This document shows, piece by piece, positions 16,100 through 58,000 of a DNA stretch of 64,000 nt; the first letter of the stretch is position 1; each line of letters opens with the position of its first letter. This DNA is from Centroscyllium fabricii (lineage: Eukaryota). Position numbers and translations under genes: made by a program. The notes under the pieces are model-generated. The model did no database searches. It was not told the DNA's origin and was given only the letters and a program-made list of their open reading frames with translations. The stretch covers positions 167,772,001 to 167,836,000 of the forward strand of contig JBNRSN020000012.1 in the NCBI GenBank assembly GCA_051313645.2, in the 5' to 3' direction.

Positions 16100-17140
16100 C
16101 GTCCTTGCACCGTTTACTCTCGAGTCCCCTAAGGCTCAACCCTTGGCCCCCCTCTTCCTCATCTACATAACGCCCTTTGGCAACATCCTCCAGAGATGGA
16201 GTCAGTTTTCACATTTATGCAGAAGACATCCAGCTCTATCTCTTCACCAGCTCTCTCGACCCATCACTGCCTTTCTGGTCTTTGATGAGCTGCAATTTCC
16301 TCCAGTTGAACATTTGGCCCCACCTCAAACTCCTTCGCCTCGCCATCAATTCTGTCCACTCCCTGGACACCAGCTCGGGTTGAGCCAGACTGTTTGCAAC
16401 CTTGGTGTCCTATTCTATCCAGAGTTGCGTTTCCGACATTATGTCCTCTCCATCACGGAGACTGTCTACTTACATCTCTAACATCACCTATCTCCATCCA
16501 TGCATCAACTCATCTGCTGCTGAAACCCTCATCCATGCCTTTGTTACCTCCAGACTCGACTATTCCAATGCTCCCCTGGCTGGCCTCTCATCCTATGGCC
16601 TCTCATCCTATGGCCTCTCATCCTATGGCTTCTCATCCTATGGCCTCTCATCCTATGGCCTCTCATCCTATGGCTTCTCATCCGATACCCTCCGTAAACC
16701 TGCTCATCCAAAACTTTGCTCCCTGTATCCTTTCCTGCACCAAGTCTCGTTCACCCCTCACCCCTGTGCTTGCTGGCCTACATTGGTCCCTGGTCCCCTA
16801 ATTCCTTGCATTCAAATTTCTCATCCTTGTATGTAAGTCTCTTCGTTGCCTTGCCCCTCCCTGTTTCTGTAACCTCCACCAGCCCTACAGCCCCCTTTTC
16901 ACTTGAACTCTCCATTCCTCTGATTCGGCTCTTGTGTTTCTTCTCATCCTTTGGCAGCCATGCTTTTAGCATTTCCCCTCTCAACCTCCACTTCACTCTC
17001 CTTTAGGACCCTCCTTAAAACTCACCTCTTCGACCAAGTTTTTGGTCAGCACCCCCTATTATCTCCTCCTTTGACTTGGTGTCCATTTATTCCTGTTGTA
17101 TGCCTTGGGATGTACTTTCTATGTTAAGTTGTAGTTGTTT
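16100..17140 (+). mobile_element. L2-clade LINE 3' fragment with an internal 15-bp expansion
   Basis: SFHIYAEDIQLY and AETLIHAFVTSRLDYSNA motifs. (TGGCCTCTCATCCTA) about 7 times at 16581-16683. Confidence 0.8.
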
Positions 17141-17349: not shown

Positions 17350-18313
17350 GTAGATGTTAACCATGTTTTAACTGTTTAACATTTGTCAATTTAGAGTATT
17401 TCTGTTTGTTAATTGTAGAAATCACTGAGCCTGGTGGGATATAGCTCTACATACGATTTTAAATGAGCAAGTTGTTGACGAGCCCACTAGTGATACATAA
17501 TACATTCCAAGGATTCCTGTTTATCACACCTAAGGCTAATGCATCTTTCTGTCATGCTTATTTTTAAAAAGTATTTTAAAAGCATTGTCACACTGGTGTT
17601 TTATCATAAAAAATGAACATGCAAGAAGTATGCACTGAACGCACACGTCAGTATGAAGCAGGCATAACCAGAGTCTCACGATTATTTATTTTCACCATGG
17701 CTCCCTATTCTATATATACATATATTGTGACTATAAAGTTAGTTTTTCTAGTGGTTTGAATTCTTTATTCATTATATTACAACATAACCACTGTGATCGC
17801 TGCAAATGGAGGAATTGTTTCTGAACATTTTGCATCTCACTTTGTGCATCAATAGGATAGTAATTTTGTTGAATGAGGAGGGCAAAGGGTTAAAAGTTGC
17901 GGTATCTTTTGTCCACTCATTAAAGTGAACAATTAAACAGAGTTGTGCCCACCAATTATTTTGAAGATCAGATTAAAATGTTTACTGAATTGTGGTAAAC
18001 CACTGTTGTTGTTGTTGTTGTTATTCACTGTCGTTCACTCTTGCCTGTTGTATATAACCTGCCTGGACATGCCTCTGCTGATTCCGCCTCTGGCTCCACC
18101 CTCATGCCCTGGTATAAAGGCGACTGCTTTCCAGTCCCCTGGCATTCAGGACTGGTCAACCAGTAGAGGCATGCTCTCGATCTTTAGTAAATAATAGCCT
18201 GTTAGTTACTTGATCTTTAGTAAATAAAACCCTGTTAGTTACTTACTTAACTCCAGTCTTTTGATCGTGATTGATTGCGCATCAATTTTATTTACTAAAA
18301 GTTTTTTGCTGAA

Positions 18314-19300
18314 ATGAATAAAATCCTAAAACCAGAACGCCTAGCGTTAGATCCTCAAGCGGCGGATGCGGCTAGAACGTTCGCGCACTGGCTAAAGTGC
18401 TTCGAGGCATTACTGGATGCCTCCAAAACTACCGTCGCGTCTGAGACAGACAAGCTACTGGTCCTGCAATCCTGGGTGAATCACCAGGTGTACTTCCTCA
18501 TTGAAGAGGCGGCTACTTACAAAGACACCCTGGACCTCCTAAAGGAGCAGTACGCACGCCCGGTTAATGAGGTCTACGCCAGGCACCTCCTACTGTCCCG
18601 CAAACAGCGGCCTGGGGAACCCACGGAAGATTACCTATGGGCGCTGAGGGTACTCTGCCGGGCCTGTAATTGTAAAGCGGTGTCGGCAAAGGTGTACACG
18701 GAGGACCTCATCTGTGACGCCCTCATCGCAGGCATCCGATCAAATTACACCCGGCAGAGACTGCTGGAGCAGGACGACCTCGATTATATAAAAAATAAAA
18801 TAAAAAAAAAGGCCACAGCCCTCGCACTATCGCTGGATGTAATATGGAATCATACTCACCGAACCACGCGGCCGCCTCATGGATGTCGCGGGCGTCAGCA
18901 TTCTGGGACACGGTAGGACTGCTATCCTGCGCCGCCCCCGCCTCATCCCACCAACAGCCCGACTACGGCAGCGATGTCCCGGGGCCAGAAGTGCTACTTC
19001 TGCGGCCAAGCAAAATACCCCAGGCAACCCTGCGCGGCGAAAGACGCTACGTGCTCCAGCTGTAAGAAGAAGCGGCACTACGCTAGTGTCTGCAAGGCAA
19101 AATCGACCTCCCACCCCAGCAGTGCCGCATGTGGACCGATCGAGCCGCCATCTTGGACGGCCGCGTGGGGAACAAGCCGACCACCATCTTGGACGCCCTC
19201 CACCGCGTGCGGATCATGGGCGACGCTATCTTGGACGCCTTCAACCGCGGATGAACCTGCCTCCCCCACCGCCTCACATGATGACTTCAGCGACTCAACG
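18314..19300 (+). pseudogene. Gypsy element 1 gag (frameshifted)
   Basis: KPERLALDP...HWLKCF N-terminus and a zinc knuckle region CYFCG...CAAKDATCSSCKKKRHYASVC. An A-rich expansion near 18785-18810 is associated with the frame break. Confidence 0.85.
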
Positions 19301-22190
19301 CTCCCTGCACTGGCCCCTCGCCCTGGACCAATCCAGGCCTCACCAGCTCGCCAGGTCCATGATGGACATAAAGGTAAACGGCCGCGCCACGAATTGCCTT
19401 TTTGACTTTGGGAGCACGGAAAGTTTTATTCACCCCAACACGGTGTGGCGTTACACTCTCTCGGTTCTGCCAGCGCAGTTCTGCAAGCGTGCCATCGGAT
19501 TTCTTTGGCCTCCAAGTCCCACACAGCGGATGTCGGGGGCTACTGCGTGGTGACCCTGTCGGTGAGGGGCACTGTTTACAAGGATTTTAAACTTCTGGTT
19601 CTGCCCCACCTCTGTGCTGCCGTCCTACTTGGGTTAGACTTTCAGAGCCATCTTAACAGCGTCAAAATGGCGTACGGTGGGCTCCCCCCCCCCCCCCCTT
19701 CATGTCTGCAGCCAGCAGTTTTTAAATCTCCCACCGTGCACCATTTGCAGCCTCTCGACTCTCAGTCACCCCATCTCCACTGTTTGCTAACCTCACCCCA
19801 GACTGCAAGCCCATCGCCACCAAGAGCAGGCGATACAGTGCCGGGGACAGATATTTTATTAAATCCGAGGTGCAATGGCTCCTGAGGGAAAGGGTTATTG
19901 AGGCTAGCACCAGCCCCTGGAGAGCCCAAGTGGTAGTCGTTAAGACCGGCGAGAAACACCGCCTGGTCATAGACTATAGCCAAACCATAAACCGGTATAC
20001 GCAGCTGGATGCATACCCCCTTCCCCGCATATCTGACATGGTCAACCAGATTGCACAGTACCGGGTATTCTCCACTATCGACTTAAAGTCAGCGTATCAC
20101 CAACTCTCTATCGGCCCTGAGGACCGCCAGTACACTGCCTTTGAGGCAAATGGCCGCCTCTACCACTTCCTTAGGGTTCCTTTCGGCGTCACCAACGGGG
20201 TCTCAGTTTTCCAGCGGGTGATGGACTGAATGGTTGACCAGAATCGGCTGCTAGCTACATTCCCGTACTTGGATAACGTTACTATCTGCGGCCATGACCT
20301 GCAGGACCACGACGCCAACCTTAAGAAATTTCTCCGCACAGCCCAACTCCTAAACCTTACTTACAGCAAGGGGAAATGCATGTTCCGCACCACCCGCTTC
20401 GCTATCCTTGGCTGTGTTGTGCAGAACGGGGTCAACGGTCCCGACCCCGACTGCACGCGTCCCCTTCTGGAACTTCCCCTTCCCCACTGCCTCAAGGCCC
20501 TGAAGAGATGCCTGGACTTCATTTTGTATTACGCCCAGTGGGTCCCTAATTATGCAGACAAAGCCCGTCCACTCATCAAGTCCACCTCTTTTCCTCTGGC
20601 GGCAGAGGCCCGTCTAGCCTTCAGCCGCATCAAGGAAGACCTCGCTAAGGCCACAATGCACGCTGTGGACGAATCCACCCCGTTCCAGGTGGAGAGTGAT
20701 GCGAGCGACTTTGCCCTGGCCGCTACCCTTAACCAGGTGGGGAGACCTGTGGCGGCCTTCTCACGAACCCTCCAGGGCCCCGAAATTAGACACTCCTCTG
20801 TCGAAAAGGAGGCCCAGGCCACTGTGGAAGCTGTGCGGCACTGGAGGCATTACCTGGCCGGTAAACGATTCACCCTGCTCACTGACCAGCGTTCAGTTGC
20901 TTTTATGTTTAATAACAAGCAGTGGGGCAAAATCAAAAATGACAAGATATTGAGGTGGAGAATTGAACTTTCCACCTGCAATTATGATATCTTGTACCGG
21001 CCCAGGAAGCTCAATGAGCCCCCAGATGCTCTAGCCCGCGGAACATGTGCCAACGCCCAGGTGAATCGACTGCAGTCCCTCCACAATGACCTCTACCACC
21101 CGGGGATCACCAGGTTCTTCCATTTTGTCAATGCCCGCAACCTGCCTTACTCCATCGAGGAGGACAGGACCATGACCAGGAACTGCCAAGTCTCTGCCGA
21201 GTGCAAACCGCACTTTTATAGGCCAGACAGGATACACCTGATAAAGGCCACCCGTCCTTTTGAGCGCCTGAGTGTCGATTTCAAAGGGCCCCTCCCCTCC
21301 TCTGACCGCAACGTGAACTTCCTCAATATTATTGATGAGTACTCACGTTTCCCTTTTGCCATCCCCTGCCCGGACATGACCTCTGCCACGGTCATCAAGT
21401 GTCTGCACAATCTCTTCGCCCTGTTAGGGTTCCCCAGCTATATCCATAGTGACCGGGGTTCCTTGTTTGAGTGGCGAGCTGCGTCAGTACCTGCTCGCAA
21501 GAGGAGTCTCCGCGAGCAGGACCACCAGCTACAGCCCCCGGGGAACGGACAGGTAGAGAGGGAGAATTCAACAGTCTGGAAGGCCGCCCTGCTAGCCCTG
21601 AAGTCTAGAGGCCTTCCAATTTCTCGCTGGCAGGAAGTCCTCCCTGATGCGCTCCACTCCATCCGATCACTACTCTGTACTGCCACTAATGCTACTCCTC
21701 ACGAAAAAATGTTTGTCTTCCCTCGGAAGTCCACCTCGGGGACCTCGCTGCCATCATGGCTGACTTCCCCAGGGCCCGTCCTACTCCGGAAGCACGTGAG
21801 TAGCCATAAGACGGACCCCCTAGTCGAAAGGGTCCACCTCCTCCACGCCAACCCCCCATACGCCTACGTTGCATACCCTGACGGGCGGGAGGACTCGGTC
21901 TCCATTAGAGAACTCTCACCCTCGGGAGCCCCTGAGACCACTATTCCCCACCACCCATCACCATTGCCCCCCACCGCTACCCACGATGCACCGGTATCGA
22001 GGCATTTTACTCTAGCCCCTGCAGACGGGACCCGTCGCTGAGCACCCACCAACTCGACGCGGATGATGACGACACGCCGGTGCTCCGGACCGCTCTGGAT
22101 TTGCCAATAGAACCTGCACCACAGCCGGAACCACGACGGTCGCAGCGGCAGACCAGACCTCCCGAAAGACTTACTTATACTAAATTTTAA
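19301..22190 (+). pseudogene. Gypsy element 1 pol (protease-RT-RNase H-integrase), disrupted
   Basis: CLFDFGSTESF protease; SPWRAQVVVV, IDLKSAYHQ and YLDN in RT; ESDASD RNase H; SVDFKGP, IDEYSRFP, SDRG and GNGQVER integrase. In-frame TGA at 20227-20229 plus frameshifts. Confidence 0.92.
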
Positions 22191-22519
22191 TTCACTTCAC
22201 CCCGCCGGACTCCTTTTTAAACGAGGGGTGAATGTGGTAAACCACGTTGTTGTTGTTGTTATTCACTGTCGTTCACTCTTGCCTGTTGTATATAACCTGC
22301 CTCGGCATGCCTCTGCTGATTCCGCCTCTGGCTCCACCCTCATGCCCTGGTATAAAGGCGACTGCTTTCCAGTCCCCTGGCATTCAGGTCCGGTCAACCA
22401 GTAGAGGCATGCTCTCGATCTTTAGTAAATAAAAGCCTGTTAGTTACTTACTTAACTCCAGTCTTTTGATAGTGATTGATTGCGCATCATGAATGTTTAC
22501 ATAATTAGATAACTTGGCC

Positions 22520-23540
22520 CGGGACCTCTCTGCGTGGAGTTTGCATGTTCTCCCCGTGTTAGTGTGGGTTTCCTCCGGGTACTCCGGTTTCCTCCCATCG
22601 CCCAAAGACATGCAGGTTAGGTGAATTGGAGATATGCAAAATTGCCCATGACGTTTTAGCCAGCGTATGCAAATTTGCCTAAAACGCTGAACTTTCGACC
22701 TTTTTTTCAGTTTTGGGCGTATAATAGCGTATTCATAACGTATTGGACGTATCGTATTAGTAACGTACACAGAACGTTTCGATAAGTTACAGATAACTTA
22801 TACCAACGAATGCTTAGCGTGTTGTCGGCGTTCACAACTTATGCCCAACGATAGTCTAACGTATGCATAGCGCGCGGCAGCGTATCGCCGACGTTTTAGA
22901 TAAATTTTGATACGTAGGCATACGCTAGCTAAATCGTCAAGGTGTGACCGGGCATGACAGGGGCATAAGTTCTGTGGTCGTCCGGAAGACGTCAAATACG
23001 TCAATATGCGTTGGAGATACGTTACACATAGGTTCAAAGCACGTTACTCATAGGTTAGACATAAGTTCCGGGTACGCTAGACATTATCTCGACGTATTTT
23101 GACGTATGACTAACTTACAAATAACGTGTGTCAACGATCGCCTAACGTGCCTACAACGTATGGCCAGCGTATGCGGAACGTGTGAATCATACGCTAGATA
23201 CGTCGAGATTTTTTGTGCATGCTCAAAAAATCTCGACTTGAAGTACAACGACGTATGCAACGTATGGCCAGCGTATGCCAGCGTGCTCATAACGTATACA
23301 AAACGTACCCATAACGTATCCGACGTAAACCAGCGTTTTAGCCAAATTTGCATACGCTGGCTAAAACGTCAAGGTGTGACAGCCCCTATAGTTCTTCGAG
23401 TTGGTGGTGTCGGAGGCTATGGGGAGAGGGTAGGAGGGGAGTGCTGGGTTTGGATGATCAGCCATGATCTCGTCAAAATGGCGGAGCAGGCTCGAGGGGC
23501 CGAATGGCCTACTCCTCCTATCTTCTGTGTTTCTGTGTAG
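22520..23540 (+). mobile_element. V-type SINE split by a CpG-rich DNA transposon insertion
   Basis: SINE core at about 22520-22647 and SINE tail at about 23390-23540 flank the insert. Confidence 0.7.
22649..23387. mobile_element. CpG-rich non-autonomous DNA transposon with long inverted repeats (PIF/Harbinger-like)
   Basis: 41-bp inverted arms at 22649-22689 and 23331-23371 (one mismatch). The right end reads CAAGGTGTGACAGCCCCT, and a similar terminus occurs internally at about 22935-22952. Confidence 0.65.
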
Positions 23541-23789: not shown

Positions 23790-24313
23790 CAGGTTGAGGT
23801 TCATTAATCCGGCACGGGCGGGACCAGGCCCATACCGGACAAGTGAAAATCGCGAACGATTGAAGTTTCGGCGAGCGCATGTGCAGACCATTCAAAATGG
23901 CTGCCGCGAAAAGCTGCGGGGAGACCTGGCTCGGAGAGGCTCGCAGTGGCCAGGCTCGGGGAAGCTCGCAGCGGCCAGGCTCGGAGAGGCTTGCAGCAGC
24001 CAGGCTCAGGGAGGCTCGCAGCGGCCAGGCTCGGAGAAGCTTGCAGCGGCCAGGCTCGGAGAGGCTTGCAGCAGCCAGGCTCGGGGAGGCTCGCAGCGGC
24101 CAGGTTCGGGGAGGCTCGCAGCGGCCAGGATCGGCTCGGCCATTGTGAATGATCTGCGCATGCGCTCGCCGTTCGGCGGCGCATGTGCAGATCATTCGCC
24201 GAAGCATCGATCGCGGTGGCCATTTTGCGCATGCGCAGGGCAGTCAGGGAAATTATTGCCGGACGTTAGAAGTTGCCGGTTTTTCGGGTGCCGGATTAGC
24301 GAATTTCAACCTG
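23790..24313. mobile_element. Tigger-like MITE, family B, with an internal 25-bp minisatellite
   Basis: TIRs CAGGTTGAGGTTCATTAATCCGGCAC / GTGCCGGATTAGCGAATTTCAACCTG with TA flanks. GGCTCGG(A/G)GAGGCT(C/T)GCAGCGGCCA 8 times at 23928-24127. Confidence 0.85.
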
Positions 24314-25775: not shown

Positions 25776-26164
25776 GGTTAGCACTGTTGCCTCACAGCTC
25801 TGGAGACCCGGGTTCAAATCCAGCCTCAGGTACTATCTGTGTGGAGTTTGCACATTCTCCCCGTGTCTGCGTGGGTTTCCTCCGGGTGCTCCGGTTTCCT
25901 CCCACAGTCCAAAGATGTGCGGGTTAGGTTGATTGGCCATGATAAATTGACCCTTAGTGTTAGGGGGATTGAATATGTGGGGTTACGGGGATAGGGTGGG
26001 ATATGTGTCGGTGCAGGCTCAATAGGGATCGAGAGATATGGGGAGAGGACAGGGGCGGGGTGCTGGGTTTGGATGATCAGCCATGATCTCATTGAATGGC
26101 GGAGCAGGCTCGAAGGGCTGAATGGCCTACTCCTGCTCCTATCTTCTGTTTCTGTGTTTCTATG
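25776..26164 (+). mobile_element. V-type SINE, 5'-clipped
   Basis: Nearly identical to the copies at 3515, 51255 and 62817. Confidence 0.85.
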
Positions 26165-55073: not shown

Positions 55074-58000
55074 TAGCAGAGCCACTAGGGGGAGACATCC
55101 CTATCTCCCCAAAGAATCAGAATCCACATTCTGGAGTTGGTCCCGCCCCTGTTGTCCCATTGGTCGGTTGGAGCAACAGTTTTGGTCCCGCGGGCTGTCC
55201 ATCAAAAGCCCCATCATGCCTTGCGTTTTCACGCCTTTTGCAGTTAGTTGTTTTCTGGATCGAACTCAATAACGACCTGTTTACGTTTGCTCTGCATTCC
55301 TCGACGTTTATATCGAATTCGACGAGTAGGCAACTGCCGTTCCCTACAATTGGTGACCCCTAATGTCAGCCCCAGAAGGTGCTGACCTGAACGTGAGCCC
55401 CGAGGTCGGGCACTGCGAACGGCCGTCGACGATCAGCCTTCCCCCCCCCCCCTCCCCACCCCTTTTGGGACAACCAGGCAGCCGCTTGGCTTTTGCAGAC
55501 AGAGGCCCAGTTCCAGCTCAAGCGCCTCGATAGCAGTGAGGACCGATACCTCCTCATCGTTTCAGCTCTGCCAAGCCGACATCGTGGATCTGCTGCGGGA
55601 CCCGCCTCTCACTGACAGGTACGCTGCCGTTAAGAGCCGACTGCTCCAGGCTCACGACTTACATGAAGACGTCAGAGCCCGGCAACTCCTCGATCTTTCG
55701 GAGTTAGGCGACTCCACGCCTACGCGCCTGATGAATCGCATGCTCGCCCTTCTCGGGGACCACCAAGACTGTCCTTTGTTTCGGGTGCTATTTATCAGTC
55801 TGCTCCCACAACCTGTACAATCGGCTTGAACGAACGTTAGAGGTGGGACCTACACCGAACTGGCCACCGCCGCGGACCGCGTTTGCCTGTGCGCATCCAC
55901 TAATTGTGCATCCACGAGGCTCGTAGCCCCTACGCCGCGGGTTATGCCTCCACCTCAGCACGGACTCTGCTATTACCATGCACGCTCCGGCCCACAGGCT
56001 CATCACTGCCGACCACCTAGTTCATTCAACGACAAAGAGGTTACGCCCAAACCTCACGTTTCGACCCCGCACCGCCGCCAGGGCCCAGCCGCAGCAAACG
56101 CCATTGGCACAGCAGCAAAGCTGCTGTATGTGATGGACTCGCTGTCCGGACGGAAGTTCCTCTGTGACACCGGGGCTCAATGCAGCATTTTGCCAGCTAC
56201 GCAGCTCGATCGACAAGCAGGCCGCAGTGAATGGCGCAGCCATAGCCACGTTCGGGAAACGGCGGGCAGAGATTCGCGTGATTGGCCAGTGGTTCACCTG
56301 GGATTTCGTTACAGCCAACGTGGAACATCCATTGCTAGGCGTGGATTTCCTATGTGCCCATGGTCTGCTCGTGGACGTCCAGGGCAGACGCGTCCACTTT
56401 TACCTCCCTGCCCTGCCAGTGGAGCAACAGCCACCCCCTTGTGGGCTCCTGCTTGCCGCCTCTTCGCGACAAATACGCGCGCCTACTGGCCGAGTTCCCG
56501 TCCATTACACAGCCGACCTTTTCCGAGGTGGCGGCCAAACACGGCGTCCGACATCATATCGCCACGACTGGCCCACCAGTCTTCGCTCGTGCCAGGCATC
56601 TCGACCCCACGGAGATGGCGGTCGCAAAGCAGGAATTTTCAAACATGGAAAAGTTGGGGATCATTCGCCCCTCGATCAGCCCGTGGTCATCCCCGCTCCA
56701 CATCGTTCCCAAGCCCGGTGGCGGCTGGCGACCGTGCGGCGACTACAAGCGCCTTAATGACGCCACCACGCCGGACAGATATCCAGTGCCACACATTCTC
56801 AAAAGTCGACCTCATCCGAGGATACCACCAGGTCCTGGTCCACCCGGACGACGTCCAAAAGACGGCAGTGATTACACCGTTCGTACTTTTCAAATTCCTA
56901 CGTATGCCCTTCGGCTTTAAGAATGCGCACAGGTTTTCCAACGGTTGATGGACTCTGTCCTTCGGGACTTGGACTTTTTATTTGTATATCTCGATGACAT
57001 ATTGGTAGCGAGTGCGGATGAATCTCAACATGTTGTGCATTTGCGTTCCCTTTTTCAGAGATTGGCCCATCATGGCCTAATTGTAAACCCGGTTAAATGT
57101 CAATTCGGCCTTGCTTCATGCTATTCCCTTACCCTCTAAGGTTAAAGCGGTCACTGATTTTCCACAGCCTCGCTAAGTGGGCCCTAGCTGAAGCCACCCT
57201 TTTGACCCACCGTATACCGGGCGCCCCACTGTCGCTCACGACGGACGCCTCGGATCATGCCATTGGCACCATTCAGCAACAATGGGTTGATGGCGCCTGG
57301 CAGCCCCTCGCATTTTTTAGCCGCCAGCTACGGTATAGTGAGCTCTCGTATAGCACGTTCGACCGGGAACTGCTAGCTCTTTCTCTTGCGGTGCGGCACT
57401 TTCGGTTTCTCTTGGAGGGCCGTCCGTTCACTGCTTACGCGGACCATAAGCCCCTCATTTTCGCCTTGTCCAAGGCCACTGAGCCCTGGTCAGGTCGCCA
57501 ACAGCGCCACCAGAATTTCATTTCTGAATTTACCACAGACATTCGTCACGTGTCCGGTAAGGACAATGTCGTTGCCGACTGCCTCTCCCGTCCTTCCATC
57601 ATCGCAGTCCACGTTGGTGTTGATTATGCAGAGATGGCGCGTGCCCAGCAGGCGGACGCCGAGCTGCAGGCTTTTCGTTCTGCCTCCACCAGACTGATCC
57701 TAGCGGATGTTCACTTTCAAGCAGCCGGCACGTCCCTCTTGTGTGACGTTTCCGTGCCTAACCCTAGGCCCTTAGTGCCACCTCCTGGCGCAAGTACGTC
57801 TTTGGTTTGGTCCATGGGCTCACCCACCCGAGCACGCGAGCTTCTCAGAAGCTCATGCCCGCCAAATTTGTCTGGCCAGGCCTACATAAAGATGTGCAGA
57901 ACTGGACGAACATCTGCCAGGACTGCCAACACGCTAAGGTCCATCTGCACACTAAGCACTAAGGCGCCCCTGCAGAATTTTCTGGTGCCCGAACGACGGT

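Follow-up and report, generated by a model that had tools for sequence, protein, structure and literature searches.

Self-priming, in which a retrotransposon starts reverse transcription from its own RNA, has been shown for Tf1 of fission yeast, and the available parts of the literature describe a Tf1/sushi group that includes Tf1, Tf2, Tj1, and Tosmo (PMC4600332, PMC7175516, bioRxiv 10.1101/2022.12.06.519325). In Tf1, the first 11 bases are cut off by RNase H and become the primer (PMC7175516), and a three-duplex "pretzel" is described, in which two further stems are formed by PBS-adjacent sequence (bioRxiv 10.1101/2022.12.06.519325). Self-priming was also predicted for Tcn1 chromoviruses and for the TAR elements of plant Ty1/copia (Houba, Osr-1) (PMC6317226). 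Within Ty3/Gypsy, the literature consulted ties self-priming to one chromoviral group. It is undescribed for Cigr-1 or other non-chromoviral animal Gypsy elements in the accessible text of PMC6317226, PMC4600332, PMC7175516, PMC5443660, PMC2864245, PMC3601003, PMC5006619, PMC5341516, PMC5445492, PMC6934838, PMC5371799, PMC6238403, PMC8220671, PMC2148107, and bioRxiv 10.1101/2022.12.06.519325. Among the titles returned by a literature search, with subscription journals, Repbase, and GyDB outside its coverage, none concerned self-priming by animal Gypsy elements of a non-chromoviral clade. The Cigr-1 clade, whose founder is Cigr-1 of Ciona intestinalis and which also includes elements of molluscs, is listed under Mag in the supplement of PMC6238403, and the accessible part of that paper mentions neither a PBS nor self-priming.

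The locus considered here lies in a 64,000-nt stretch of Centroscyllium fabricii DNA, which as a whole is called the window and on whose forward strand the parts of the element given below are read. It holds a full-length but decayed Ty3/Gypsy element of ~4.5 kb, and the observation discussed sits at its 5' end. The direct repeat of 17991-18284 with 22233-22489 defines a 5' LTR of 294 nt, beginning with TG and ending with CA, and a 3' LTR of 257 nt; TSDs (TGAAT) are seen in the sequence on the left (17986-17990) and on the right (22490-22494), and a polypurine tract precedes the 3' LTR (22219-22232). The gag gene (18314-19426), with the N-terminus MNKILKPERL and a decayed double zinc knuckle, is interrupted by stops and frameshifts. 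The broken pol (19359-21978) encodes protease, RT, RNase H, and integrase in that order, with the RT motif YLDN at 20266-20277; its lesions are frameshifts in the protease region and in the late integrase and a stop at 20227-20229. Pfam domains were found in the Gypsy order (PR-RT-RH-IN), which together with the TG...CA LTRs, the TSD, and the polypurine tract identifies a Ty3/Gypsy LTR retrotransposon, and the best relative with a solved structure is Ty3 Gag-Pol. No further copy of the element is present within the 64-kb window. Six substitutions and a 4-nt indel separate the two LTRs, and their alignment reveals in addition a tandem duplication of 33 nt, which was missed in the earlier note on this DNA and is present in the 5' LTR only (18179-18244, units 18179-18211 and 18212-18244).

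The 5' LTR ends in ...GCATCA (18284) and is followed by a one-base spacer, A (18285), and by TTTTATTTACTAAA (18286-18299), which occupies the PBS position. This sequence is the exact 14-nt reverse complement of an LTR segment at 18216-18229, the predicted self-primer arm, and of 22421-22434, the arm being identical in both LTRs. The earlier note had reported that no TGG-starting PBS follows the LTR and that the PBS position is instead complementary to an LTR segment lying downstream of a TATA box (18113-18118) and containing AATAAA; all of this was borne out, with no TGG in 18285-18313 and with AATAAA at 18223-18228. The duplication covers the arm and the poly(A) signal, and one unit keeps the perfect arm and the other keeps the GCC that follows it. 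Thus, a second arm copy with a 13/14 match is found in the first unit (18183-18196). The predicted cut, directly 3' of 18229, is followed by CCC in the 5' LTR and by GCC after the arm copy in the 3' LTR.

In 5000 dinucleotide shuffles of the LTR, the complement to the first 20 post-LTR bases did not exceed 11 nt (0/5000 reached at least 12). A complement of at least 14 nt within the preceding 257 nt occurs at 44 of 63,680 window positions, grouped at four places including this one. The predicted minimum-energy fold contains the arm-PBS helix, whose predicted probability at 37 C is 0.81-0.94 over twelve choices of start and end; three starts from 18085 onward give 0.90-0.94, and transcripts beginning with the LTR give 0.81-0.91. 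The global fold of the leader has a modest z-score of -1.67; what is unusual is the position and the exactness of the complement. No Rfam match was found at E 10 in 17900-18400, and no tRNA gene was found in the window. Several other features of these LTRs can be recorded here. Predicted folding of the entire 3' LTR is better than that of shuffled sequence (z -3.5). Three perfect RRRCWWGYYY decamers, which we take to be p53-type half-sites, lie in the LTRs (18065-18074, 18167-18176, and 22405-22414), out of 10 in the whole window, and they belong to a 16-17-nt inverted repeat spanning the TATA box.

The gag family of the element comprises 1410 clusters at 50% identity. An alignment of 96 gag members gave no stretch conserved enough for scanning, and a 19-member alignment was used instead. 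The gag motif scan yielded 82 loci in public contigs, consisting of the best 80 of 111 confirmed metagenome loci and two genome-collection loci; three scans of viral_contigs gave no relative. Two of the loci (L081 and L082) belong to this animal clade but come from contigs classed as metagenome-assembled genomes of bacteria, likely host DNA in the bins. The gag start was placed in 72 of the 82 loci, the other 10 being dropped because the gag N-terminus was not located, and these 72 loci form 22 families at 80% DNA identity. A fixed test was applied, in which any CA up to 70 nt from the gag start was taken as a possible LTR end, the PBS was set one base on, and the longest exact complement was sought in the preceding 150 nt.

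An exact complement of 12-18 nt, in the register of CA, one base, and PBS, was found in at least one copy of 18 of the 22 families, which share descent and many of whose loci come from a few assemblies. Another family, represented by L058, has the complement with one mismatch. By the same test, at least 12 nt was reached at 3 of 4783 arbitrary positions. At the level of single loci, an exact complement of at least 11 nt is present in only 39 of 72, and many of the others show single uncompensated changes or rearrangements. The complement is absent by the fixed test in three families (L020, L025, and L068); the L020 contig begins at the likely arm and has CA-AT-TGG 51 nt upstream of gag. CA followed after zero to three bases by TGG occurs somewhere within 70 nt upstream of gag in 9 of 73 loci, L020 among them. 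In several loci whose contigs contain both LTRs, the LTR ends could be fixed independently by the direct repeat, which stops at the CA defined by the test or a few bases from it; 5-bp TSDs are present in all seven loci checked.

The comparison of helices was made on 20 families, namely the window and 19 others with one copy each, L020, L025, and L068 being left out. None of these 20, the window included, has TGG in the first six bases past the LTR end, and the spacer is A in all of them. The first 12 PBS bases pair with their own LTR at 12 of 12 positions in 19 of 20 families; against the LTR of another family, 12/12 is reached in 4 of 380 comparisons (two family pairs with identical 12-mers), with a mean of 8.4. 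There are 18 distinct 12-mers among the 20 families, whose gag identity ranges from 26 to 82% (median 49%). Of the first 12 helix positions, ten vary among two to four Watson-Crick pair types, with all four seen at positions 5, 7, 8, and 10. In total, 239 of 240 cells are paired, where 10,000 column shuffles gave 157 on average and never more than 178, although the shuffle ignores relatedness and the figure is biased upward since the representatives and the PBS starts were chosen after the repeats had been seen. The earlier note had named covariation between the PBS position and the LTR segment as the way to check its claim; such covariation was found in 18 of the 22 families, and in the comparison of helices the pairing of a PBS is specific to the LTR of its own family. 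The complementarity is real, far beyond chance, and clade-wide.

The geometry of the helix is also constrained. Pairing is 12/12 at offset 1 in 19 of 20 families and at offset 0 in none, and the spacer A never pairs with the base 3' of the arm (20/20). The three bases after the arm are GCC or ACC in 17 of 20 families, the distance from arm to PBS is 24-72 nt, and the helix ends 0-33 nt upstream of the gag start. A hairpin joining the RCC after the arm to a GG plus a pairing base further along the LTR (RCC/GGY) is possible in 16 of 20 families, against an expectation of 5.4 and a maximum of 13 in 200,000 simulations. In the computed folds, the stem of this hairpin is stacked against the primer helix, and the predicted cut falls where the two meet. 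The hairpin is absent from the window copy. PBS-adjacent duplexes of the Tf1 type are not above shuffles in the 20 families (stems of 4.1 vs 4.4 and of 5.9 vs 5.5). Since the two flanking duplexes of Tf1 are not found, the cut would need some other recognition.

The arm most often ends in a poly(A) hexamer, which is AATAAA in 8 of 20 families and ATTAAA in another 8; it ends exactly at the arm end in 15 families and one base earlier in the window. Four of the 20 families keep the full helix with no hexamer in the arm, two of them by a compensated change of A-T to G-C inside the terminal AAA. The L001 sequence, whose arm lacks the hexamer, has ATTAAA 3' of the arm, in the loop of the RCC/GGY hairpin (L001:935-950). 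The earlier note had supposed that the pairing would hide the poly(A) signal of the 5' LTR only. In 16 of 20 families such a role is plausible; it cannot, however, be the general reason for pairing because the four others pair without the hexamer. In most families the helix would also hide the poly(A) signal, in the 5' LTR only, likely as a second use and not the primary one.

The nearest named pol proteins are those of a catshark and rays, with 73-78% identity for the four best. The named pol relatives come from sharks, rays, a coral, nematodes, flatworms, crustaceans, and insects, though scoring of the fold-back covered only the window and the metagenome and genome-collection contigs. The earlier note saw no chromodomain in the integrase. 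In agreement with this, none was hit at E 0.1 in the window, and none appears among the precomputed Pfam domains for the best 120 pol relatives, some of them partial, or in 32 rescanned pols. In the accessible part of the published alignments, the RT shares WRAQV, IDYSQT, DAYPLP, and GVTNGV with Cigr1, and its RNase H and integrase motifs also match this element, the set for the three domains adding TDQRSV, GKIKN, and DFKGP (PMC8220671). RT identity with Cigr1 in that material is about 75 of 138 positions (~54%) by hand count. On the same alignment page, as far as it is available, WRAQV, IDYSQT, and GVTNGV are not in TF1, and the motifs diagnostic of Cigr-1 are missing from Tor, Cer, CsRN1, Kabuki, Boudicca, Osvaldo, Woot, Ulysses, Circe, and Gmr1 (PMC8220671). 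Mag proper, suggested by the double zinc knuckle, was dropped for Cigr-1 after this comparison of published motifs. An RT tree of 36 rows, with no reference elements and one very long outgroup, shows for the window only a grouping with shark and ray proteins. The RT motifs match the non-chromoviral Cigr-1 clade, a placement that is suggested by motif evidence and to which this tree does not contribute. A distant reverse-transcriptase fragment with 21% identity to this clade is also present in the window (56576-57115).

The catalytic motif of the RT deserves separate mention. YxDN occurs in 63 of 120 pol relatives, with 27 having YxDD, 27 lacking the anchor, and 3 unparsed, and YxDN and YxDD are interspersed in the RT tree. 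Young elements with near-identical LTRs exist (L001, L004, and L015; 99-100% LTR identity in the L004 and L015 families), and YxDN is found in these as well. According to the available parts of the two reports, the matching substitution abolishes transposition of Ty1 (PMC2148107) and of Ty3 (PMC5371799).

Compared with the Tf1/sushi group, the locus is alike in having no tRNA site and in having a PBS directly past the 5' LTR that is complementary to its own LTR. It differs in that the window element and its relatives have no chromodomain and in that its RT lacks the Tf1 motifs and shares those of Cigr-1. The helix is 12-18 bp here and 11 in Tf1, the "pretzel" duplexes are not found but an RCC/GGY hairpin can form after the arm in most families, and the arm usually ends in a poly(A) hexamer. 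Cigr-1 itself has the same RT, RNase H, and integrase motifs and differs in having YLDD, at least in the available alignment, where the window has YLDN. With TAR and Tcn1, the locus has in common that self-priming is predicted from PBS-LTR complementarity, and TAR is likewise a proposal outside chromoviruses; however, those elements belong to another superfamily or clade, in plants, and are known from prediction only. On comparative evidence the element is predicted to work like Tf1, yet it is not a Tf1/sushi member.

The reading that we favor, and consider probable, is Tf1-like self-priming with the element's own RNA, cut at AAA|GCC. It assumes that the 5' leader of the genomic RNA folds back and that the arm pairs with the PBS. 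Cleavage at AAA|GCC, where the arm ends on its 3' side, would then follow, with the element's RNase H as the likely enzyme on the Tf1 model. From the primer end so freed, synthesis would run over the spacer base, through U5, and along the short remainder up to the cut, after which the new DNA would jump to the 3' copy of the repeat. The RCC/GGY hairpin that most families can form, stacked on the primer helix, would mark the cut and stand in for the pair of flanking duplexes in Tf1. With the hexamer contained in the arm, as in most families, polyadenylation would take place just past the cut and the stretch available for strand transfer would be very short. Of the fold-back variant proposed in the earlier note, self-priming in a non-chromoviral lineage is well supported by the comparison, but an internal primer is not supported so far. 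Placing the primer tens of nt inside the transcript depends on a single TATA box, the putative TATAAA at 18113-18118, whose position is not conserved among relatives. It lies 103 nt from the arm in the 5' LTR and 70 nt in the unduplicated 3' LTR, where it would place the cap ~40 nt upstream of the arm. Among relatives, none of 19 families has TATAWA 41-64 nt upstream of the arm end and one has it 9-32 nt upstream, and the search for a conserved TATA or initiator upstream of the arm gave nothing usable. A bolder form of self-priming was also considered, in which the clade has a mode of its own. The primer would be a poly(A) signal cut at the helix-hairpin junction (AAA|GCC), taken from an internal position or from the 3' repeat copy after end-to-end closure of the RNA, and not from the capped first bases, with an RT whose third catalytic Asp is changed to Asn in many families; we regard this combination as doubtful.

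If the cap is at or after GCC, AATAAA|GCC becomes the U3|R border and the arm is present only near the 3' end of the RNA. Priming would then come from this 3' copy: the RNA would close end to end, or two RNAs would pair, and a 3' region that had been cut or trimmed would serve as primer at the PBS. Some retroviruses have a layout of this kind, in which a poly(A) signal immediately precedes the cap site and R is very short. The identity of the arm in both LTRs is consistent with this arrangement, as are the hexamer that ends at the arm end in most families (one base earlier in the window) with RCC next, and the lack of a conserved TATA fixing a start upstream of the arm. However, a TATA at a distance fitting a cap at GCC was found in a single family of 19, the window TATA box lies ~80 nt upstream of GCC, and cutting the 3' copy would remove the strand-transfer acceptor, so that a second RNA would be needed. 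No such mechanism is described in the accessible parts of the cited literature, and we consider it unlikely. Somewhat less likely again is that the helix is a regulatory hairpin, which masks the poly(A) signal in the 5' LTR or controls use of the gag start codon, with priming by a tRNA fragment or at another site. AATAAA or ATTAAA at the arm end in 16 of 20 families and the closeness of the helix to the gag start (0-33 nt) would suit such a role. The retention of the helix in the four families without the hexamer, two of them through a compensated change, does not, and neither does the fixed register to the LTR end, which is expected if the primer end defines the LTR end. Priming by a host tRNA is hard to square with 18 different 12-mers that each track their own LTR, and this family-specific covariation argues against half-tRNA or tRNA-fragment priming as well; for another primer site there is no room between LTR and gag where gag starts 0-3 nt past the helix. 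That the complementarity is chance or a copy-specific accident, arising from A+T-rich sequence or a local inversion, could be thought of given that the 14-mer is 86% A+T and that the duplication in the 5' LTR covers the arm. It is refuted by the shuffles, by the control positions, and by the presence of the complement in 18 of 22 families with different letters, and we give it practically no weight.

Other observations concern sequencing data and the neighborhood of the element. In contigs of related runs (X1, X2, X4, X5, X6, X9, and X10), the LTR end and PBS (18270-18300) are covered much more deeply than gag, and the same PBS is followed by several different gag starts. The primer site may be common to many families or to short non-autonomous derivatives. 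No variant is listed in either arm for these contigs, a weak observation to which no weight is given, since the tables likewise lack the G that the 3' LTR predicts for 18230. Beginning ~35 nt past the element, there are two copies (85%) of a short repeat (22526-22629 and 25833-25936) that resembles a fish SINE core. Tandem arrays with 15-nt and 25-nt units are found at 16581-16686 and 23875-24174, respectively. The second array is flanked by inverted repeats (23788-23815/24288-24315 and 23869-23901/24139-24171) and resembles a small foldback element.

Taken together, the comparison suggests that this lineage likely starts reverse transcription from a piece of its own RNA and not from a tRNA. 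The proposal is one of likely self-priming in the Cigr-1 clade, with a predicted junction structure of its own and a poly(A) signal built into the putative primer. The same signature runs through a large non-chromoviral animal clade, which points to a separate origin of tRNA-free priming with an RNA architecture unlike that of Tf1. An exact cut site is predicted, and the existence of young families with near-identical LTRs makes the mechanism directly testable. The finding also accounts for the failure of tRNA-based annotation to identify a PBS here, and elements that prime themselves would escape silencing by tRNA fragments at the PBS.
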